The notes beneath the pieces are model-generated. The model worked only from the letters and a program-made list of their open reading frames with translations. It did no database searches and had not been told where the DNA came from. DNA of 6,706 nucleotides from Candidatus Aenigmatarchaeota archaeon (GTDB taxonomy: Archaea > Aenigmatarchaeota > Aenigmatarchaeia > Aenigmatarchaeales > JACQIB01): assembly GCA_046760225.1 (NCBI GenBank), contig JBHIDR010000035.1, forward strand, positions 1 to 6,706, written 5' to 3'. Positions 1 through 6,706 of this stretch are shown piece after piece. The position numbers and the translations under genes are program-made. Numbering within the stretch: the first letter of the stretch is position 1; every line of letters begins with the position of its first letter.

Positions 1-381
1 AACCGTGCATGGGATGAATATCTCGACGAAAAACGGGGGAAGGCCTTTGTTAAAAGGGAAAAGATAGGAACATTGGAAGCAATCGAAACAATACTTAACT
101 CTGGCGGCATACCTGTTATGGCCCATCCAATCAAGCTGAATGACCAGGAGCTAATACCCTATTTCGTCAAGAAAGGCATGATTGGAATTGAAGTTTATTA
201 CCCTGAGCATGGCGAAGAAACAGAGCAGCACTATTTGGAAATGTCAAGGAAATATGATTTGGTTGCCACGGGAGGCAGTGATTCGCATGGACCCGGTTCT
301 GTCAAGCCCCTTGACGTAGGATGCGCAAATGTTCCTTTAAGCGTATATGAAGACCTCAAGAAAATCAAGAAGAATTTATAA
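1..381 (+). CDS. PHP-domain metal-dependent phosphoesterase (TrpH/YciV-like), C-terminal part, 5'-truncated by the window
   Basis: Frame 1 is open from base 1 (NRAWDEYLDEKRGKAFVKRE...). It carries the PHP motifs GGIPVMAHP, GIEVYYPEH and TGGSDSHG. Stop TAA at 379-381. Confidence 0.85.
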   Translation, partial: NRAWDEYLDEKRGKAFVKREKIGTLEAIETILNSGGIPVMAHPIKLNDQELIPYFVKKGMIGIEVYYPEHGEETEQHYLEMSRKYDLVATGGSDSHGPGSVKPLDVGCANVPLSVYEDLKKIKKNL

Positions 382-404
382 GGGCTGGAAACTATTTCTA
401 AGGC

Positions 405-830
405 ATGGAGTATAAGTTTTTCGAGCACACAGCTGACACCATCTTTGAAGGATATGGCAAGAGCTATGAGGAGGCTTTCGCCTCGGCAGCACTTGCAATG
501 CAGGAGGTCATGACTGATACATCCAGGGTGGAGGCAAAACAAGAGGAGAAGATAGAAGCAGAAGCCAGGGACATGAAGGCGCTGCTGTACGACTTTCTTG
601 AGAAGTTCCTGATACTCAAGGATGCAAAGAACCTTGTTTTCTCAAAGTTTGAGGTCAAGAGGATAGATAAGACTGACAGGGGATACAGGCTCGAAGCAAA
701 GGCATGGGGAGAGGAATTCAACCCGGAGAAGCACGAGGACAAGAGCCATGTCAAGGCTGTTACATACCATGAAATGGAAATCGGTGAGAAGGAAGGAAAG
801 AAATATGTAAGGGTGCTGGTTGACATCTAG
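405..830 (+). CDS. Archease (RtcB activating cofactor)
   Basis: 141 aa with N-terminal YKFFEHTAD, central LLYDFLEKFL, AWGEEF and C-terminal VKAVTYHEM...VLVDI, all archease signatures. It lies close to rtcB. Confidence 0.95.
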   Translation: MEYKFFEHTADTIFEGYGKSYEEAFASAALAMQEVMTDTSRVEAKQEEKIEAEARDMKALLYDFLEKFLILKDAKNLVFSKFEVKRIDKTDRGYRLEAKAWGEEFNPEKHEDKSHVKAVTYHEMEIGEKEGKKYVRVLVDI

Positions 831-1234
831 ATATCTACTGAAATCTTTTCAACAAGAACAATTATTTTCTTGCCCTTTCTGGGACCCTCGACCTTAATGA
901 GACCGAATCTTTCAAATATCTTCAGGTCCTCGTATACATTCTTTATGTCCCTCTTGACTGCCCTTGCAAGTCCTGTTATTGAATCGAAACTGCTGTATTT
1001 TATTGTCTCCAAAAGGATTAGGCGCTCTGGTGTTAGCAGTTTCCTCAGTTCGCTTATCTGAACCTTGAAAATCTCTTCCTCAGACAGGAAGAGCTCTCCT
1101 GATTCTTCATATTCTCTGTATGCCCTGTTCAGCCTGAACCATTCTTCTGTATCCTGCTTCTTTTTCCTTTTCAAAATGGCTATTTTCTTAACCAGTTCCT
1201 CTGGCCTGAGTTTGTATTTTATCCTTATCTCCAT
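827..1234 (-). CDS. Winged helix-turn-helix putative transcriptional regulator (HVO_A0114-like)
   Basis: C-terminal LLTPERLILLETIK...SITGLARAVKRDIKNVYEDLKIFERFGLI is typical of this archaeal HTH family. I placed the start at ATG 1234 (MEIRIK) because a minus-strand TATA-like TTTTATAG lies about 23 nt upstream. The ORF-track start at 1285 falls inside the promoter palindrome. Confidence 0.75.
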   Translation of the reverse strand: MEIRIKYKLRPEELVKKIAILKRKKKQDTEEWFRLNRAYREYEESGELFLSEEEIFKVQISELRKLLTPERLILLETIKYSSFDSITGLARAVKRDIKNVYEDLKIFERFGLIKVEGPRKGKKIIVLVEKISVDI

Positions 1235-1256
1235 ACAAACAGATGGGTCCTGAGAA

Positions 1257-1264
1257 CTATAAAA
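1257..1264 (-). promoter_or_regulatory. Putative TATA box of the HTH gene (probably a leaderless transcript)
   Basis: The reverse complement of ctataaaa is TTTTATAG, about 23 nt upstream of ATG 1234. Confidence 0.45.
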
Positions 1265-1267
1265 ATC

Positions 1268-1286
1268 TTTGGTATGCCATACCAAA
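1268..1286. promoter_or_regulatory. Perfect inverted repeat TTTGGTATG-C-CATACCAAA, candidate operator
   Basis: 9-bp arms with a 1-nt spacer, located between the two divergent TATA-like boxes. Confidence 0.6.
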
Positions 1287-1292
1287 AATTGA

Positions 1293-1325
1293 TATATAAA
1301 TACGTAAACAAGGATAGAAAGGTGA
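1293..1325 (+). promoter_or_regulatory. rtcB promoter TATA box (TATATAAA 1293-1300) and ribosome-binding site (GGTGA 1321-1325)
   Basis: Archaeal TATA consensus preceded by an A-rich BRE-like stretch. GGTGA lies 4 nt before ATG 1330, and the same RBS precedes 3489 and 3823. Confidence 0.6.
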
Positions 1326-1329
1326 TATA

Positions 1330-2837
1330 ATGCCTGAAATAAGTCTCAAAAAAATAGATGAGCTGCGCTGGGAGATACCCATAGGAACGATTCCAAATAT
1401 GCGCGTTCCTGTAAGGGTCTTTGCCAGTGAGCCCATGCTCGAGAAGATGAAGCGTGACAGGACGCTCACACAAGGAGCTGGCGTTGCAACACTGCCAGGG
1501 ATTTATAAGCATGCCATTGTTCTGCCGGATGGGCACGAGGGATATTCTGTAAATGATTTTTGCAGAACCTTAAATGGGTTCCCAATCGGCGGGGTGGCTG
1601 CACTTGATTTCAAGGAAGGCGGAATAAGCCCTGGCGGAATAGGATTGACTAAATAGTGTTAGCTTTTAGTCCCTAAAATGATATCAATTGTGGCGTGCGG
1701 CTTGTTACCACTAATCTCACGATTAAGGATGTAATGCCGAAAATAAAGGAGCTGTTGGAGGCGTTGTTCAGGAACATTCCCTCGGGCTTGGGCTCCAAGG
1801 GAAAAATAAAGGTATCAACTGATGTCCTGAACACTGTCCTGGAAAAAGGAGCTGCCTGGGCTGTTGAAGAAGGCTATGGATGGAAAAAGGACCTTGAGCA
1901 CCTTGAATCGAACGGCAGGATTGATGCTGATGCTTCGCTTGTGAGCAGCAGGGCAAAGGACAGGGGCAAGCCACAGCTCGGTAGCCTGGGTTCAGGTAAC
2001 CATTTCATTGAAGTGGAAAAGGTTGACAAGATATTCAGTCCTGAAGTTGCAAAGGCATTCGGCATCCATGATACTGATCAAATAGTTGTGCTTATACACA
2101 CAGGCTCAAGGGGGTTTGGGCACCAGGTATGCAGCGATTACCTGAGGGAAATGGAAAGAAAGTTTGCTGACATTATCGCAAAGCTGCCTGATCGTGAGCT
2201 TGTATATGCTCCTGCCGGGACACAGATGGCAAAGGACTATCTGCTTGCAATGGGATGCGCTGCTAATTTTGCCTGGACCAACAGGCAGATGATAGTGCAC
2301 TGGGCAAGGCAAAGCTTTGAAAGGATATTCAAGAAGAGTGCAGAGGACATGGAAATGAACATCATCTATGATGTTGCCCACAACATCTGCAAGATAGAGG
2401 AGCATGAAGTCAATGGAAAGAAAGCAAAGGTGTACATGCACAGGAAAGGGGGAACAAGGGCATTCCCTCCAGGACATCCTGAAATACCTTCTGAATACCG
2501 TTCAGTTGGCCAGCCTGTGTTTATTCCTGGAAGCATGGGAACAGCTTCCTATGTGCTTCATGGAGTAGACGAAGGGAAGGTTACGTTCTTCTCAACTGCA
2601 CATGGTGCAGGAAGGGAGATGAGCAGGCATGCTGCGCTCAGGCAGTGGAGAGGGGAAAGGGTCAAGAAAGAGCTTGAGGCAAGGAACATCTTTGTGCGCA
2701 GCGCAAGCTGGAAGGGGATTGCAGAAGAGGCTCCTGGTGCATACAAGGACATAGATGAGGTAGCAAGAGTGAGTGACGAGACAGGCATCGCAAAGCGCGT
2801 CTCAAGGCTTGTGCCTGTGGGTGTTGTGAAGGGATAA
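1330..2837 (+). CDS. rtcB: RNA-splicing ligase RtcB, intron-containing: join(1330..1543,1574..1645,1678..2837), 481 aa
   Basis: Exons of 214+72+1160 nt total 1446 nt, i.e. 481 aa plus stop. The spliced product has all RtcB motifs: LPDGHEGYGFPIGGV, SPGGIGYDINCGVRL, GSLGSGNHFIEV, IHTGSRGFGHQV, YDVAHN, HRKG, PGSMG, STAHGAGR and EEAPGAYKD. Archease is nearby. Confidence 0.93.
1544..1573 (+). other. rtcB intron 1: 30-nt BHB (archaeal tRNA-type) intron, in frame, no stop
   Basis: Central helix AGGG(1538-1541)/CCUU(1568-1571). Bulges AUA(1542-1544) and AAA(1572-1574). Inner 9-bp stem UUCUGUAAA(1545-1553)/UUUGCAGAA(1559-1567). Outer exon-exon pairing of 1522-1537 with 1575-1592. Removal restores GGA TAT GGG TTC (GYGF). 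Confidence 0.85.
1646..1677 (+). other. rtcB intron 2: 32-nt BHB-like intron, frameshifting, with in-frame TAG
   Basis: Central helix UAGG(1640-1643)/CCUA(1672-1675). Bulges AUU(1644-1646) and AAA(1676-1678). Inner 7-bp stem GACUAAA(1647-1653)/UUUAGUC(1665-1671). Removal restores GGA TAT GAT ATC AAT TGT GGC GTG (GYDINCGV) and joins the two ORFs in frame. Confidence 0.9.
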
Positions 2838-3410
2838 TCAGTTTGCAATGAACTCGAATATTCTTTCAAAAGAACGTGGCGTATGATCACACAGAGCATG
2901 ATAGAGCAAGGAGTCAAATTTCCTTGCATCATCCTCATTGAGGTAGTTTGTCTCGAACCAGAGCTGCGGTCTCATGTCAGTGGTCTTTCTCAGGGCCTCG
3001 CCGTTCGACTTTGCTGTAACCATGTATACCTCTATTCCCTGATTCTTTCCCTTGTAGGCGATTGCATTGCGGTCTGAGGCTATTACCTTTATCATCTTGA
3101 ACTTCTCCTTGTCCCCGTCCTCTATGGCCTTGGCTGTATCTTCAAAGTCAGAGGAAAAGCAGTAGGCCTTTTTAACAACGTACAGGTCTTCTCCGTCTTC
3201 CCTTTCAACTGCCTTGAGGTCCTTTTCCATTATTTCATTGAAGTATTCGGCAGCGCCTTCTGAACTCTGGGGTGCAACTGTACTTTTCTTGAACTCCTCT
3301 TCTGTTATTCCAAACTCCTTTAATGACTCATAAAAGGGCTTGTTGTCCACAGCATACGCAAAGACAGCTGCCCAAACCTTGGATAGATATATGCTCGGAT
3401 CTGGCATCAT
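2838..3410 (-). CDS. Hypothetical protein (190 aa, acidic)
   Basis: Long ORF with protein-like composition that fills the gap between rtcB and the next gene. GAGGAGA RBS on the minus strand at 3412-3418. No family recognised. Confidence 0.7.
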   Translation of the reverse strand: MMPDPSIYLSKVWAAVFAYAVDNKPFYESLKEFGITEEEFKKSTVAPQSSEGAAEYFNEIMEKDLKAVEREDGEDLYVVKKAYCFSSDFEDTAKAIEDGDKEKFKMIKVIASDRNAIAYKGKNQGIEVYMVTAKSNGEALRKTTDMRPQLWFETNYLNEDDARKFDSLLYHALCDHTPRSFERIFEFIAN

Positions 3411-3488
3411 ATCTCCTCAAATAAAGTGTACTATATATGGTCAGAAAACTTTTTATCCTATTAGGTTCATCTATAGGAAGGTGATGTA

Positions 3489-3773
3489 ATGCCAGTATCA
3501 AAGGCTCCTTATACAAGGAAATACCAGCATACAAAGAGGAGGGGCAGAGAAGGCACTGTAGCGTGCGGCTACTGCGGGAAGAAGGTGCCGCGCTACAAGA
3601 CCTTTATAAAGTTCAGGGGATTCAGGATTACTGACCCCGCGATTCTCCAGCAGGTTGACAGGAGCCAGATACACATGAGCAGGCAGAAGATGTATGTATG
3701 CCCCAGCTGCGCAAGGTTCCACAAAATCGTCCAGAGGGGAAGGACCGTAAGGAAAAAGCACCTCAGGAGGTAA
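3489..3773 (+). CDS. rps26e: Ribosomal protein eS26 (S26e)-like, Zn-binding
   Basis: Very basic 94-aa protein. The pattern RGREGTVACGYCGKKVPRYK...DPAIL...KMYVCPSCARFHKIV matches the eS26 layout (CxxC..VP..K / Y.CxSCA...IV). GGTGA RBS at 3480-3484. Confidence 0.72.
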   Translation: MPVSKAPYTRKYQHTKRRGREGTVACGYCGKKVPRYKTFIKFRGFRITDPAILQQVDRSQIHMSRQKMYVCPSCARFHKIVQRGRTVRKKHLRR

Positions 3774-3822
3774 CCTTCTATCTTTAAAAAGGTTAGAATT
3801 CAATTAAATTTAGGTGACAGAA

Positions 3823-4149
3823 ATGAAGGTGCTGGAAACAAAGCCCATATCAATGGCAGAAGCAAAGAAGATCTTGGCTAGCCGTGAGAAGGCTGGTGAG
3901 CTTGGCTATGAGCAGAAGCTTGCAGTGGAGCACCTAAACAAATTCACCAAACTAAAACCCGAGAAGGCAAAGAAATTCCTGGAGGAAATATCTTCAGTTC
4001 TAAGAATGTCGCCTGAAACCCTTGTGCAGATAGCCAACCTGATGCCAAAGAACGCTGACGAGCTCAGGCTCATATTCGCCAGGGAAAAATTCAGCCTGAA
4101 GGAGGAAGAAATAAACAAAATTCTTGAAACAGTCAAGAAATATTCATAG
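3823..4149 (+). CDS. rpoF: DNA-directed RNA polymerase subunit Rpo4 (RpoF)
   Basis: Motifs ISMAEAKKIL, ELGYEQKLAVEHLNKFTKL and IANLMPKNADELRLIF. It sits in the conserved rpoF-DUF655-ksgA order. Start set at ATG 3823, after GGTGA (3813-3817). Confidence 0.9.
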   Translation: MKVLETKPISMAEAKKILASREKAGELGYEQKLAVEHLNKFTKLKPEKAKKFLEEISSVLRMSPETLVQIANLMPKNADELRLIFAREKFSLKEEEINKILETVKKYS

Positions 4150-4158
4150 GTGGTTAAC

Positions 4159-4719
4159 ATGGTTCTGAGGGATGATGACGTCATAGTTTTAGATTTCTTG
4201 CCTAGGGGCAGGGCTGATGGAAGAAGGGCAGAGCCAATAGCACAGGTCATAGGTACTAAGTATTTCTCTTTGCTTGAGGTCGTGACCAGGAAAGATGTCA
4301 CGCTCAAGCACGGCGACAAGGTGTACATAGGAGAATCAAAGAGGGAAAAGGTCGATCACATTAAGAGGAGGATAATGATGAAGGACCTCACATCATTTGC
4401 AAGAAGCGAGCTTCCCTTTGTTGTTGAAAAGCTTGTTAAGGAAAGGGAGGAACATTTTGCCAATTTCTTCAATACAGCGCAGCCAATAAGCACCAGATTG
4501 CACCAGCTCGAGCTGCTTCCGGGAATAGGCAAGAAGCACATGTGGGACATAATAAGGGAGAGAAAGAAGGGCAAGTTCAAGAGCTTTGAGGACCTGAAGA
4601 AGAGAGTAAAGCTTCTTCCTGACCCAATGGGCTCAATAGTCAAGAGGGTAATGGAAGAGCTGCAGGATGAAAATATAAGGTACAGGCTCTTTGTTGCAGG
4701 GCCTGTAAGGAGATACTAG
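4159..4719 (+). CDS. DUF655 family putative RNA-binding protein with HhH motif
   Basis: Motifs VLDFLPRG, AQVIGTKYFSLLEV, FFNTAQPISTRLHQLELLPGIGKKHMW and FKSFEDLKKRV. It lies between rpoF and ksgA. AGGTGG RBS precedes ATG 4159. Confidence 0.9.
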   Translation: MVLRDDDVIVLDFLPRGRADGRRAEPIAQVIGTKYFSLLEVVTRKDVTLKHGDKVYIGESKREKVDHIKRRIMMKDLTSFARSELPFVVEKLVKEREEHFANFFNTAQPISTRLHQLELLPGIGKKHMWDIIRERKKGKFKSFEDLKKRVKLLPDPMGSIVKRVMEELQDENIRYRLFVAGPVRRY

Positions 4720-4727
4720 GTTTTTGC

Positions 4728-5456
4728 ATGCCAGCAAAACTAGGACAGCACTTTCTGCAGGATATTGGAACAGCAAGGAAGATAGTAGAGTATGCGGATG
4801 TGGGCAGCAGGGACACTGTCCTGGAGATAGGGCCAGGAAAGGGCATGCTTACTGAACAGCTGGTGAAAAAAGCAAAGAAAGTAATAGCAATAGAGAAGGA
4901 CTCTGTGCTTGCCCGAGTAATTGCTGACAACTTTCCTGATGTAGCTGTGATAAGGGCTGATGCACTGAAGATTGAATGGCCGGAATTTGACAAGATTGTC
5001 TCTAATCTGCCCTATCAGATATCAAGCCCTGTGACATTCAAGCTCTTCAGGCACAAGTGGAAGGCAGCTGTGCTCATGTACCAGAAGGAGTTTGGGGAGA
5101 GGTTTGTTGCAGAGCCAGGAGAAAGGCGATATTCCAGGCTCACAGTAGCAGTGAACTACCATTGTGATGCTGAGGTACTTGAATTTGTGCCAAAGGAGAA
5201 GTTCAGGCCAAGGCCAAAGGTTGATTCAGTGATAATCAGGCTGACACCCAAAAAACCGCCTTTTGTGGCAGATGATTTCTTCTGGCATGTTGTGACCCAG
5301 CTGTTCAGGCACAAGAAAAAGACAGTTGCAGCAGCACTCAAGGCAAGCAAGTACAGCAAAAAGGCTATAGAAAGGCTGCCAGAGGAGCTTGCAAAGGAAA
5401 GGGTCTTCTGGTGCGACCTTAAGAAGTTAAAAAGCATAGCGGATGCGATGAGATGA
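4728..5456 (+). CDS. rsmA: 16S rRNA adenine dimethyltransferase RsmA/KsgA/Dim1
   Basis: Motifs KLGQHFL, VLEIGPGKG (SAM-binding), IEKD, VSNLPYQISS, MYQKEF and FRPRPKVDS. Confidence 0.95.
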   Translation: MPAKLGQHFLQDIGTARKIVEYADVGSRDTVLEIGPGKGMLTEQLVKKAKKVIAIEKDSVLARVIADNFPDVAVIRADALKIEWPEFDKIVSNLPYQISSPVTFKLFRHKWKAAVLMYQKEFGERFVAEPGERRYSRLTVAVNYHCDAEVLEFVPKEKFRPRPKVDSVIIRLTPKKPPFVADDFFWHVVTQLFRHKKKTVAAALKASKYSKKAIERLPEELAKERVFWCDLKKLKSIADAMR

Positions 5457-5863
5457 GGCAGTGCCCGAACTGCAGGAAGAGCAAGTTCCTTGTGTACAAG
5501 CCATGGCTCGGGCTCATATGGGAGTGCAGGAAGTGCGGGTACAGAGGGCCACTTGTGATAGAAGTAATGGAACCCAGACTTCTTAGGCTTCTGAAGAAAA
5601 TACCAAGGGGTAAAGTAACAACCTATGGCATTCTGGCAAAGAAACTGGGGACAGGCCCAAGAGCTGTTGCACAGATGCTGAAAAACAATCCTGAGCCCAT
5701 AAGGATTCCATGCCACAGGGTTGTGAAGTCAGACGGCAGCCTAGGCGGCTATACTTGGAAAGGCAGGCAGAATGTGAAAAGGAAAAAGGAGCTGCTCAAG
5801 AAAGAAGGCGTGGAAATAAAGAAAGGTAAAATTGACCTGAGGCGCTTTGGATACAAATTCTGA
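5453..5863 (+). CDS. MGMT/Ogt-family methylated-DNA-protein-cysteine methyltransferase C-terminal domain with an N-terminal Zn ribbon
   Basis: IPRGKVTTYGILA...PRAVAQ...NP...IPCHRVVKSDGSLGGY, with the active-site PCHR intact. N-terminus has CPNC-x17-CRKCGYRGP. ATGA overlap with rsmA. Confidence 0.85.
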   Translation: MRQCPNCRKSKFLVYKPWLGLIWECRKCGYRGPLVIEVMEPRLLRLLKKIPRGKVTTYGILAKKLGTGPRAVAQMLKNNPEPIRIPCHRVVKSDGSLGGYTWKGRQNVKRKKELLKKEGVEIKKGKIDLRRFGYKF

Positions 5864-5888
5864 TAAATCTTTAGCACCAATTCTATGC

Positions 5889-6706
5889 ATGCGAAGAACA
5901 GGCACTGCCAACCTTCCTCTACACTATGGCCATGCGCCGCGCTGGCTGTTTGAAAGAATGGTAAAGCTGAGTGGTGCAATATCTGAAGCCATAGTCCTAG
6001 AGTATGGTCCAGAGGAGCTATTGAAGAGACTAGCAGATCCCTTCTGGTTTCAATCATTTGCATGTGTAATCGGCTTCGATTACCACAGCTCGGGCACCAC
6101 TACAACTGCCTGCGGAGCACTGAAAATCGGGCTTCCAAAGGAACTGGGAATAAGCATTGCAGGCGGAAAAGGAAGAATCTCAAGGAAAGCGCCCCAGGAA
6201 ATAGCAAAAGCTGCCAAGATATATGGACTGGATGATGCCCTGCTTGTGCATGCAAGCAAAATGGCTGCAAAGGTGGACAGTGCGTGCGTTCAGGACAGTT
6301 ATTCCCTCTACCATCACTGCTTCTTCCTTGCAGAATCAGGTGAATGGGCTGTTGTGCAGCAAGGAATAGGGGATTCCTATGCAAGAAGATACCATTGGCT
6401 GAGCCAGGGAGTGAAAAGCTTTGTTGAAGAGCCGCACAGCGGCATAGCATGCGAGCACAAGAACAAGAATACGCTTGACCTGACAGCAGAGCTCAACAAG
6501 GAAATAAGGCAATACAGCATTGAGCTGGCAAAGGAGAGCCCTGTCAAGATAGAGAAGGCTGCATTAACTTTACCAAGGATGCACAAGACCCCTGTGGGAC
6601 CTGTAACACTGAGGAATCTGAGGAAAATCGCTGAAATACAGCCACAGAATTATGAGGAGCTAGTGGGTCTCAAGGGCATAGGAGCAGCATCCCTAAGGGC
6701 CCTTGC
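5889..6706 (+). CDS. DUF763 family protein, 3'-truncated by the window
   Basis: Missing from the ORF track because no stop occurs in the window. Manual translation from ATG 5889 is open to the end: MRRTGTANLPLHYGHAPRWLFERMVKL...RLADPFWFQSFACVIGFDYHSSGTTT...GGKG...AKVDSACVQDSYSLYHH...WAVVQQG...ARRYHW...FVEEPH...LKGIGAASLRAL, which are DUF763 signatures. Confidence 0.9.
   Translation, partial: MRRTGTANLPLHYGHAPRWLFERMVKLSGAISEAIVLEYGPEELLKRLADPFWFQSFACVIGFDYHSSGTTTTACGALKIGLPKELGISIAGGKGRISRKAPQEIAKAAKIYGLDDALLVHASKMAAKVDSACVQDSYSLYHHCFFLAESGEWAVVQQGIGDSYARRYHWLSQGVKSFVEEPHSGIACEHKNKNTLDLTAELNKEIRQYSIELAKESPVKIEKAALTLPRMHKTPVGPVTLRNLRKIAEIQPQNYEELVGLKGIGAASLRAL

Follow-up and report, generated by a model that had tools for sequence, protein, structure and literature searches.

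A 30-nt insertion in the rtcB gene of a Candidatus Aenigmatarchaeota archaeon, which is read in frame and contains no stop codon, raises the question whether these bases encode ten residues of the ligase RtcB or belong to an intron of the bulge-helix-bulge (BHB) type, and, in the latter case, whether different splicing states could give rise to RtcB isoforms. The gene is located on contig JBHIDR010000035.1, whose positions 1–6,706 (forward strand) are the stretch of DNA analyzed here, subsequently designated the window. The genome was assembled from metagenomic data and is a draft of 83 contigs (851 kb, 83% complete). As detailed below, bases 1544–1573 very probably represent a BHB micro-intron in the rtcB pre-mRNA, the excision of which is predicted from sequence.

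Exon structure of the interrupted rtcB gene

The genes, exons and introns of the window are as follows.

405–830, + strand: archease (RtcB activator family), upstream of rtcB; Pfam PF01951, E = 7e-47
827–1285, - strand: HVO_A0114-family protein, divergent, between archease and rtcB; Pfam PF25212, E = 2.5e-17
1330–1543, + strand: rtcB exon 1, from Met1 to the first base of the Tyr72 codon; open reading frame list, match to RtcB structures, predicted cut
1544–1573, + strand: intron 1, candidate in-frame stop-free BHB micro-intron; exact gaps relative to 1uc2/4dwr and G001, blind BHB scan
1574–1645, + strand: rtcB exon 2, 72 nt; structure match, G001 alignment, blind BHB scan
1646–1677, + strand: intron 2, 32-nt obligatory BHB intron; fold, exact 32-nt gap relative to G001
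1678–2837, + strand: rtcB exon 3 including the stop codon (2835–2837); Pfam RtcB, E = 1.4e-149, tblastn to G001 RtcB (77% identity)

The 30 bases of intron 1 read as the ten codons SVNDFCRTLN between the GHEGY and GFPIGG motifs, and alignment with the RtcB structures 1uc2 and 4dwr (phmmer, E = 1.8e-30) revealed one clean 10-residue gap exactly at this place. The same-genus genome G001 lacks precisely these 30 nt as well as the 32 nt of intron 2, the surrounding DNA being ~80% identical. The aspartate of PD and the tyrosine of the interrupted codon correspond to residues 67 and 72, respectively, which bears out the first-pass annotation in its description of a stop-free insertion between the two motifs, five residues past the aspartate. 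The lengths of 481 and 491 aa given there likewise agree with the exons, as 214, 72 and 1160 nt add up to 481 aa, or to 491 aa when intron 1 is kept. Since AT is repeated at both borders, the insert could equally be placed at 1545–1574 or 1546–1575. Excision of 1544–1573 restores GGA-UAU-GGG (Gly-Tyr-Gly) at the junction and gives back the motif found in 93/93 scorable uninterrupted rtcB genes, in which a single residue, Tyr, lies between the two motifs (139 rtcB loci were examined; scorable genes carry both motifs in one open frame, the rest being partial, interrupted or of variant motif). Finally, the GC content of intron 1 is 26.7%, as compared to 49–56% in the rtcB exons (50.5% in exon 1).

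Intron 2, located 72 nt downstream of intron 1, carries a TAG and shifts the frame; left unspliced, it splits rtcB into two open reading frames of 108 and 380 aa. An unremoved intron 2 with its stop and frameshift, in a draft genome of 83 contigs, might suggest a decaying rtcB pseudogene or insertions produced by mis-assembly. However, rtcB is single-copy and otherwise intact in this genome, which has intron-bearing tRNA and rRNA genes; its exons share 75–77% protein identity with G001 RtcB without any further break (tblastn); and both insertions are precise BHB units that also occur in independent assemblies. We therefore consider decay or artefact hardly credible.

Genes for the machinery expected to act on such introns are present in the host. 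Two EndA-family genes are located on contig C2; their products of 163 and 176 aa both have an N-terminal and a catalytic domain, and one of them has PDB 3iey as its closest match, with the aligned His retained. The genome thus encodes both a splicing endonuclease (two EndA) and an RNA ligase (rtcB, with archease). BHB micro-introns of 28–41 nt and of the same build are also found in its 16S rRNA, 23S rRNA and tRNA-Ala genes, the coordinates of the tRNA-Ala intron (39747–39774 on contig C1) being ARAGORN's own call.

BHB fold and predicted cut sites

According to PMC5829648, what defines a BHB is a 4-bp helix with a 3-nt bulge at each end, located at the borders between exon and intron. Intron 1 shows this arrangement, and its elements (all + strand) are the following.

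1538–1541, + strand: central 4-bp helix, exon strand AGGG; pairs with 1568–1571, 4/4 including one G-U
1542–1544, + strand: 5' bulge AU|A; predicted cut between 1543 and 1544
1545–1567, + strand: inner hairpin with a 9-bp stem (1545–1553 with 1559–1567) and loop 1554–1558; from the fold
1568–1571, + strand: central 4-bp helix, intron strand CCUU; partner of 1538–1541
1572–1574, + strand: 3' bulge AA|A; predicted cut between 1573 and 1574

The 9-bp inner stem described earlier is indeed seen in the fold, and the 91 nt around intron 1 fold with z = -3.26, only 1/200 shuffles folding equally well. The minimum-energy structure is one base off: GAGG (1537–1540) is paired, leaving a 4-nt 5' bulge and six unpaired 3' bases, so that the 3-4-3 geometry known from textbooks corresponds to a neighbouring register, which was scored by script and was not the first choice of the fold program. 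The long exon-exon pairing claimed for this site stands in part. The energy fold pairs exon bases 1522–1528 with 1586–1592, but the outer helix is interrupted (2 pairs, a mismatch, 4 pairs), only 36/72 of its cells are paired across 12 relatives, which is no better than slid controls, and by our reading the flanking complementarity is also present in intron-less G001. Because the outer helix is interrupted and pairs no more than the controls, the motif is probably of a relaxed type on its outer side, and this would fit the relaxed forms accepted by broad-specificity endonucleases.

In intron 2, the central helix is formed by UAGG (1640–1643) and CCUA (1672–1675), the bulges are AU|U and AA|A, and the inner stem comprises 7 bp (1647–1653 with 1665–1671) closed by an 11-nt loop. 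Fold energy alone is not significant in this case (z = -1.09; 26/200 shuffles fold as well). In a 221-nt fold, both rtcB BHB domains form side by side.

The splicing endonuclease cleaves after the second base of each bulge. This rule matches the ARAGORN-called tRNA-Ala intron of the same genome and 15/18 homology-defined junctions. Moreover, among the four possible placements of the cut at the Tyr72 codon, only the Tyr-restoring one yields a BHB in all seven relatives first examined. When all cuts and lengths were scanned blindly, the length and cut obtained for intron 1 were those given by homology; the homology-derived intron was recovered in 9/12 cases at the Tyr72 site, with G016, G021 and G024 (2/4 central pairs each) being missed, and the homology cut was matched in 6/6 introns at the intron 2 site.

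From these data a splicing pathway can be proposed. In the folded transcript, exon bases 1538–1541 would pair with intron bases 1568–1571. The 4-bp helix thus formed, flanked by two 3-nt bulges, would lie above the 9-bp intron hairpin. EndA, the archaeal splicing endonuclease, would cleave after 1543 and after 1573, and the exon ends would be joined by RtcB itself, aided by the archease encoded just upstream. Removal of intron 2 (1646–1677) in the same way would yield a message for a standard RtcB of 481 aa, in which the invariant PDGHEGY-GFPIGG motif is intact.

At the genome level, a strict BHB-hairpin motif occurs 155 times on both strands of the 851 kb, as compared to 59–92 times in five shuffles, and simple arithmetic from these counts indicates that a particular 30-nt indel would carry a strict BHB by chance with a probability of about 1e-5. 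With loose criteria, 2,298–2,428 matches were obtained versus about 1,600–1,700 in shuffles. A still wider scan gave 26,924 matches, and its 1,230 apparently ORF-fusing candidates were discarded, being mostly non-coding-frame noise. None of the eight frame-breaking strict candidates with at least 50 open codons on both sides resembles a split gene upon inspection. Judging from the translations, one of the eight is located between two apparent small genes of ribosomal/RNA-polymerase type. The sensitivity of the strict filter is poor, as both rtcB introns are missing from its final list: intron 2 was lost by its 11-nt loop and intron 1 by its short downstream exon. A motif-free comparison with the sister genome detected BHB-type insertions only in rtcB, 16S and 23S rRNA, tRNA-Ala and one unnamed RNA locus; it covered 345 kb of aligned sequence at a median identity of 71% and is blind to shared introns and fast-evolving genes. 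The earlier suggestion that in-frame micro-introns may be hidden in further genes of this lineage stays a plausible conjecture; the in-frame cbf5 micro-introns described below bear stops.

The Tyr72 codon in related archaea and the isoform question

Inserts at the same codon are widespread. In two pattern scans covering contigs of one genome per species, 53 + 14 stretches were obtained; with the loci found earlier added, there are 55 distinct archaeal BHB inserts of 23–39 nt, all of which restore Tyr at this codon. The respective genomes are labelled Woesearchaeota, Nanoarchaeota, Micrarchaeota, Aenigmatarchaeota, Hadarchaeota and Hodarchaeaceae. As a negative control, 11 bacterial-labelled stretches from the pattern scans showed neither a BHB nor a Tyr junction. 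One locus in which Tyr is restored and the central helix is 4/4 (L255) has an inner run of 1, fell below the threshold and was left out of the 55. Another locus (L134, labelled Aminicenantes) turned out to be a false interruption matched by the regular expression and was dropped before the covariation count.

Covariation was assessed in 12 homologous introns. At the base of the inner stem, 59/60 cells of the five basal pairs are paired, versus 17–30/60 with slid partners; three to five pair types occur per position, and the stem sequences are otherwise unrelated. For the central helix the values are 42/48 versus 12–32/48, and its intron strand covaries with the exon codons, as seen in AAGG/CCUU, AGGG/CCCU, UGGG/CUCA and GCGG/CCGC. 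The inserts of the relatives vary in length and in read-through peptide, i.e. base pairs are conserved and not amino acids.

These observations bear on the possibility that the insert is ordinary coding sequence for a lineage-specific 10-residue surface loop and that the hairpin is coincidental. Consistent with such a loop, the insert is in frame and free of stops, and RtcB tolerates small insertions elsewhere, four residues near position 250 in several relatives being an example. However, the relatives' inserts break the frame, not one of the 93 other scorable genes has an extra residue at this site, 27% GC is at odds with a coding region of ~50% GC, and a strict BHB would fall on a given indel by chance with a likelihood of only ~1e-5. 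A conserved 10-aa loop in homologues, which the first-pass annotation had named as one of the findings that would speak against its proposal, was looked for among these 93 genes and is absent. A coding loop is thus very improbable, and a cryptic in-frame BHB intron that gene callers read through, as originally proposed, is the supported prediction.

Is the open frame of intron 1 of functional relevance? Judged by its sequence, an in-frame stop-free insert may be translated in some or all transcripts, and it had been suggested that removal of intron 2 only leads to a 491-aa RtcB, with the order or efficiency of splicing tuning ligase activity. Such a product is arithmetically possible as the frame is open through intron 1, and the two BHB domains, which fold independently 72 nt apart, could be cut independently. 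However, of the 55 introns at the Tyr72 codon 25 are divisible by three, and the one in the window alone lacks an in-frame stop; 54/55 shift the frame or carry a stop, so that the frame is open only upon their removal. Of the 55 introns, 9 have no stop in the exon frame, versus ~30 expected after shuffling, and in 14/20 sequence clusters every member has a stop, an excess that is only suggestive because the 55 rows are related sequences. In addition, the BHB of intron 1 is superior to that of intron 2 (stem of 9 versus 7 bp; z of -3.26 versus -1.09), which makes selective retention of intron 1 unlikely. Since only 1/25 in-frame introns is stop-free, same-genus G001 has no intron and Tyr stands alone at the site in 93/93 uninterrupted genes, the open frame looks accidental. 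Regulated retention is accordingly improbable, and the proposed tuning of activity by splice order or by a 491-aa isoform finds no support. The 30-nt length and the stop-free frame look best explained by chance, not as an isoform device; a retained insert would probably harm the enzyme, and we infer that intron 1 is spliced constitutively.

Among related genomes, micro-introns were found in rtcB in 9/55, as compared to 0/59 for an RNA polymerase B domain and 2/57 for cbf5 in the same genomes. The two cbf5 cases are in-frame but stop-bearing. Within a stretch of ~30 rtcB codons, at least four further intron positions as well as inteins were detected.

Relation to known systems and significance

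The kind of intron proposed here is already known, and rtcB appears to be new as its host. Watanabe 2002 and Yoshinari 2006 reportedly described BHB introns in cbf5 pre-mRNAs of Crenarchaeota. For pre-mRNA BHB motifs, PMC5829648 cites three cbf5 papers, and cbf5 introns of Crenarchaeota are the subject of Yokobori 2009 (PMC2738675); no archaeal pre-mRNA examples other than cbf5 are cited in the literature consulted. The cbf5 introns resemble those of rtcB in being short, BHB-bordered and located in an archaeal protein-coding gene for an RNA-processing enzyme; they are removed by the tRNA-splicing endonuclease and ligase and are patchily distributed among relatives through gain and loss. In contrast to cbf5, the host gene encodes the ligase of the same pathway, the host is a small-genome archaeon with relatives labelled Woesearchaeota or Nanoarchaeota, two introns lie 72 nt apart, and intron 1, being in frame and stop-free, causes no visible break. 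A search of the open-access literature retrieved no BHB introns in rtcB and none in protein-coding genes of Woesearchaeota.

With archaeal tRNA and rRNA introns, intron 1 of rtcB has the 3-4-3 geometry and the cut rule in common. Unlike these, it resides in a message, so its removal must also keep the reading frame; furthermore, the exon strand of its central helix is constrained by conserved codons, to which the intron strand adjusts. A further parallel is provided by the unconventional HAC1/XBP1 mRNA splicing of eukaryotes, which also involves excision of a short mRNA intron by a protein endonuclease and rejoining by a tRNA ligase, RtcB in metazoans, the spliced and unspliced messages yielding different proteins. 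In that system, IRE1 serves as the nuclease and splicing acts as a regulated switch under stress, whereas for rtcB we propose EndA acting on a BHB and do not infer regulation. RtcB inteins, finally, share with intron 1 that they are in-frame selfish insertions and that they affect the same part of rtcB, its active-site region. Two relatives of the same family (G003 and G004) carry inteins of 487 and 505 aa at DIN|CG, 26 codons downstream (Pfam Intein_splicing). Inteins are excised from the protein and comprise hundreds of residues with splicing and LAGLIDADG domains, which are missing from the 10-codon insert; an intein was rejected as an explanation for intron 1, as it would require at least 130 residues instead of 10 and the signature is one of RNA structure.

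It is tempting to speculate that rtcB is a preferred and long-kept home of BHB introns because RtcB has to seal the message encoding it, although we regard this as unlikely on balance. The observations that bear on this idea so far are the 55 distinct introns at Tyr72, the further intron and intein positions nearby and the 9/55 count for rtcB. If it were true, new RtcB would be made only when free EndA and RtcB capacity is available, constituting a self-referential feedback loop; alternatively, an addiction would make rtcB introns hard to lose. The introns would then be maintained, or spread from one archaeal phylum to another, at a small number of active-site codons, and the stop-free intron in the window would be the one case where failure of splicing gives a full-length, possibly dominant-negative ligase.

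Independent of this idea, the rtcB introns at one conserved codon, with at least 55 distinct sequences under several phylum-level labels, would widen the cbf5-type class and raise the question of a ligase having to join its own message. The Tyr72 site would provide a natural, covarying set of BHB substrates for studying what EndA accepts. Because intron 1 leaves neither a frameshift nor a stop, automatic annotation would record a wrong RtcB in gene calls and protein databases, with ten false residues beside a conserved motif, and small-genome archaea are known almost only through such annotation.

The rtcB gene and its insert at the Tyr72 codon

The window corresponds to contig C35 of an 851-kb draft genome (83 contigs, 83% complete), in which the RNA ligase gene rtcB is present in a single copy. 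The gene, its reading frames before splicing and its neighbours are arranged as follows.

405-830: archease gene, upstream of rtcB
827-1285: HVO_A0114-family gene, upstream of rtcB and in opposite orientation to it
1330-2837, + strand: rtcB
1330-1656, + strand: N-terminal ORF of rtcB as read unspliced, 108 aa
1544-1573: candidate intron 1, at the Tyr72 codon
1646-1677: candidate intron 2
1695-2837, + strand: C-terminal ORF of rtcB as read unspliced, 380 aa
2838-3410, - strand: 190-aa ORF without Pfam match, directly 3' of rtcB

Most of the relatives of this rtcB in public genomes carry the label Woesearchaeota, Pacearchaeota or Nanoarchaeota. The N-terminal ORF was aligned end to end with the solved structures 1uc2 and 4dwr (E 1.8e-30), leaving a single clean 10-residue gap, which is the insert SVNDFCRTLN that the first-pass annotation had placed between GHEGY and GFPIGG. 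Its numbering was likewise correct: the PDGH aspartate is residue 67 and the tyrosine residue 72.

Five independent results favour an intron over a translated protein loop: three comparisons of the site across genomes, given here, and the prediction of the junction by the structure and the covariation of the helices, given below. In a same-genus genome (G001), whose remaining DNA is ~80% identical, precisely the 30 nt of intron 1 and the 32 nt of intron 2 are missing. rtcB is present in 54 of 60 relatives (55 of 61 genomes including the window's own). Both flanking motifs lie in one open frame in 93 of 139 examined rtcB loci, and all 93 have a single residue, Tyr, between them. Inserts of 28-33 nt are found at the Tyr72 codon in six relatives besides the window's genome (G005, G006, G016, G021, G023 and G024), five more occur among 80 public rtcB loci, and two pattern scans of one-genome-per-species contigs returned 53 and 14 stretches. 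With all sources pooled and duplicates removed, 55 distinct Tyr-restoring bulge-helix-bulge (BHB) inserts of 23-39 nt were obtained; those of other genomes are untranslatable. Neither a BHB nor a Tyr junction was detected in the 11 bacterial-labelled stretches from the pattern scans.

Record labels of the 55 sequences (public genome contigs within L196-L262) include Woesearchaeota, Nanoarchaeota, Micrarchaeota, Aenigmatarchaeota, Hadarchaeota and Hodarchaeaceae, and some records are labelled 'uncultured Methanosarcinales'; one sequence cluster combines four Hadarchaeota-labelled with two Hodarchaeaceae-labelled members. In two relatives, G027 (L059, L042) and G035 (L060, L040), a contig break falls within rtcB close to the intron site at the Tyr codon, and the two contig ends overlap by 9-17 codons; strains that differ in carrying the intron are a possible cause.

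Fold of the two candidate introns and covariation

Folding of 91 nt around intron 1 gave a z-score of -3.26, with 1 of 200 shuffles equally good. The predicted 9-bp inner stem was recovered (1545-1553 with 1559-1567), four more pairs stack 3' of it, and exon-exon helices enclose the whole. In the register scored by our script, AGGG (1538-1541) pairs with CCUU (1568-1571) as a textbook 4-bp helix with bulges AU/A and AA/A (slash, junction), and the predicted cuts would excise exactly 1544-1573, leaving GGA-UAU-GGG. The energy-minimal fold itself lies one base off and has a 4-nt bulge, a flaw in this picture. Intron 2 is built alike (UAGG with CCUA, bulges AU/U and AA/A, 7-bp stem), and in a 221-nt fold the two BHB domains form side by side. 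Removal of intron 2 would be obligatory, because it contains a TAG and shifts the frame. The GC content of intron 1 is 26.7% versus 49-56% in the surrounding exons.

BHB introns are cut at a set position within the bulge, and this rule was checked empirically. Homology allows four cut placements, and in 7 of 7 cases a BHB formed only at the Tyr-restoring one. When all cuts and all lengths were scanned blindly, the intron defined by homology came back in 9 of 12 cases at the Tyr72 site and in 6 of 6 at the site of intron 2; the three misses belong to one genus, with no more than 2 of 4 pairs formed in the central helix. Across 12 introns, the five basal inner-stem pairs were paired in 59 of 60 cells (3-5 pair types each; slid controls 17-30 of 60) and the central helix in 42 of 48 (slid controls 12-32). 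The intron strand of the central helix follows the exon codons (AAGG/CCUU, AGGG/CCCU, UGGG/CUCA, GCGG/CCGC); the helices covary, whereas the sequences do not. The outer helix was paired in 36 of 72 cells, no better than controls; therefore the long exon-exon pairing noted earlier, though present in the 91-nt fold, is not a conserved feature.

The open frame of intron 1

The first-pass annotation had further proposed that retention of intron 1 would yield a probably inactive isoform, so that the order of splicing could tune ligase activity. The arithmetic agrees, with 481 aa for the spliced product and 491 aa if intron 1 is kept; beyond this, no support for a function emerged. Of the 55 introns at the Tyr72 codon, 25 have a length divisible by three, and the window's is the only one of them that is stop-free. 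Its BHB is stronger than that of intron 2, so of the two it would not be the more likely to be retained. Regulated retention is accordingly rated as highly improbable.

In the exon frame, 9 of the 55 introns are free of stops, where shuffling predicts ~30; the remaining two frames give 18 and 33. This excess of stops is a hint and not a test, because the sequences are related. Stops are present in every member of 14 of 20 sequence clusters, and many of the introns have one by the second codon from the split Tyr codon (e.g. U/A plus R, or UUC UGA). If anything, the excess hints at selection against read-through of unspliced messages. The open frame of intron 1 is very probably an accident.

Predicted splicing machinery and insertions in rtcB

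Two genes of the splicing endonuclease (EndA) family lie at 22790-24355 of contig C2 (L063 1297-2862), separated by an apparently unrelated 189-aa ORF. They encode 163 and 176 aa, each with N-terminal and catalytic domains. The longer product is closest to PDB 3iey (E 4e-35), presumably the Nanoarchaeum catalytic subunit, with which it shares a loop insertion ahead of the aligned His; it keeps this His. In the shorter product the aligned catalytic His is missing, and both EndA products have Ala at the first Lys of the RKK motif of solved homologues. Two-subunit endonucleases of this kind are described in PMC5829648 as tolerating relaxed BHB motifs.

Aligned with G001 without recourse to any motif (345 kb, median identity 71%), the genome showed BHB-type insertions in rtcB (two), 16S rRNA, 23S rRNA, tRNA-Ala and one unnamed RNA locus. 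For tRNA-Ala, the BHB rule gave C1 39747-39774, exactly the ARAGORN call, confirming the cut rule for this genome. Scanning the whole genome for more introns in coding sequence gave noisy output and no convincing case. ARAGORN called only 21 tRNAs, 13 with introns. A tRNA-like gene it did not call (C1 ~59050-59260, - strand; L192 ~17050-17260) has matching acceptor ends, a CCA tail, a canonical BHB intron of 17 nt (59127-59143) and what looks by eye like another insertion, in the T-arm; this may explain the low count. The 16S (C1 42936-46859, - strand; L192) and 23S (C8 16700-20775, - strand; L193) rRNA genes are heavily interrupted, the former matching in two pieces ~1.7 kb apart and the latter spanning 4,076 nt against a 2,987-position model. 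Both contain BHB micro-introns of 30-41 nt that the sister genome lacks, although a separate micro-intron of 45 nt is present in the 16S of that genome.

Within a stretch of ~30 codons in rtcB, insertions were found at several positions.

Tyr72 codon: micro-introns
G/Y: micro-introns in the window's genome, G008 and four public genomes
H/S of PDGH/SGY: 21-nt micro-intron in G053 (L039)
I/N, between DI and NCG: 33-nt micro-intron in G053 (L039)
D/I: 35-nt micro-intron in G006 (L048), besides its 28-nt Tyr-codon intron
DIN/CG: inteins in G003 and G004, of the same family (L047 1556-3016, - strand; L049 560-2074, + strand), 487 and 505 aa, Pfam Intein_splicing, LAGLIDADG in one

The intein site lies three codons downstream of the site of intron 2. 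At least one rtcB micro-intron occurs in 9 of 55 related genomes with rtcB. In the same genomes, the RNA polymerase B domain has none (0 of 59) and cbf5 has them in 2 of 57; these counts are descriptive, since kin are not independent. The two cbf5 cases, L194 (G024:C118) and L195 (G027:C49), are BHB micro-introns of 30 and 15 nt within 300-760, in frame but containing stops, with central helix CUCU/AGAG and bulges AG/N and AA/A. Their position coincides with the Asp codon of GGTL-D-P, which we take to be the catalytic Asp.

Among archaeal messages, cbf5 of Crenarchaeota has recorded BHB introns (PMC2738675), with earlier descriptions reportedly dating from 2002 and 2006. In the openly accessible literature covered, including a preprint on this phylum, introns in rtcB or protein-coding introns in these lineages were unreported. 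That the ligase's dependence on itself for maturing its own message is functional appears unlikely. Judged from sequence, bases 1544-1573, in rtcB, are very probably a member of the already known type of BHB intron in archaeal messages.
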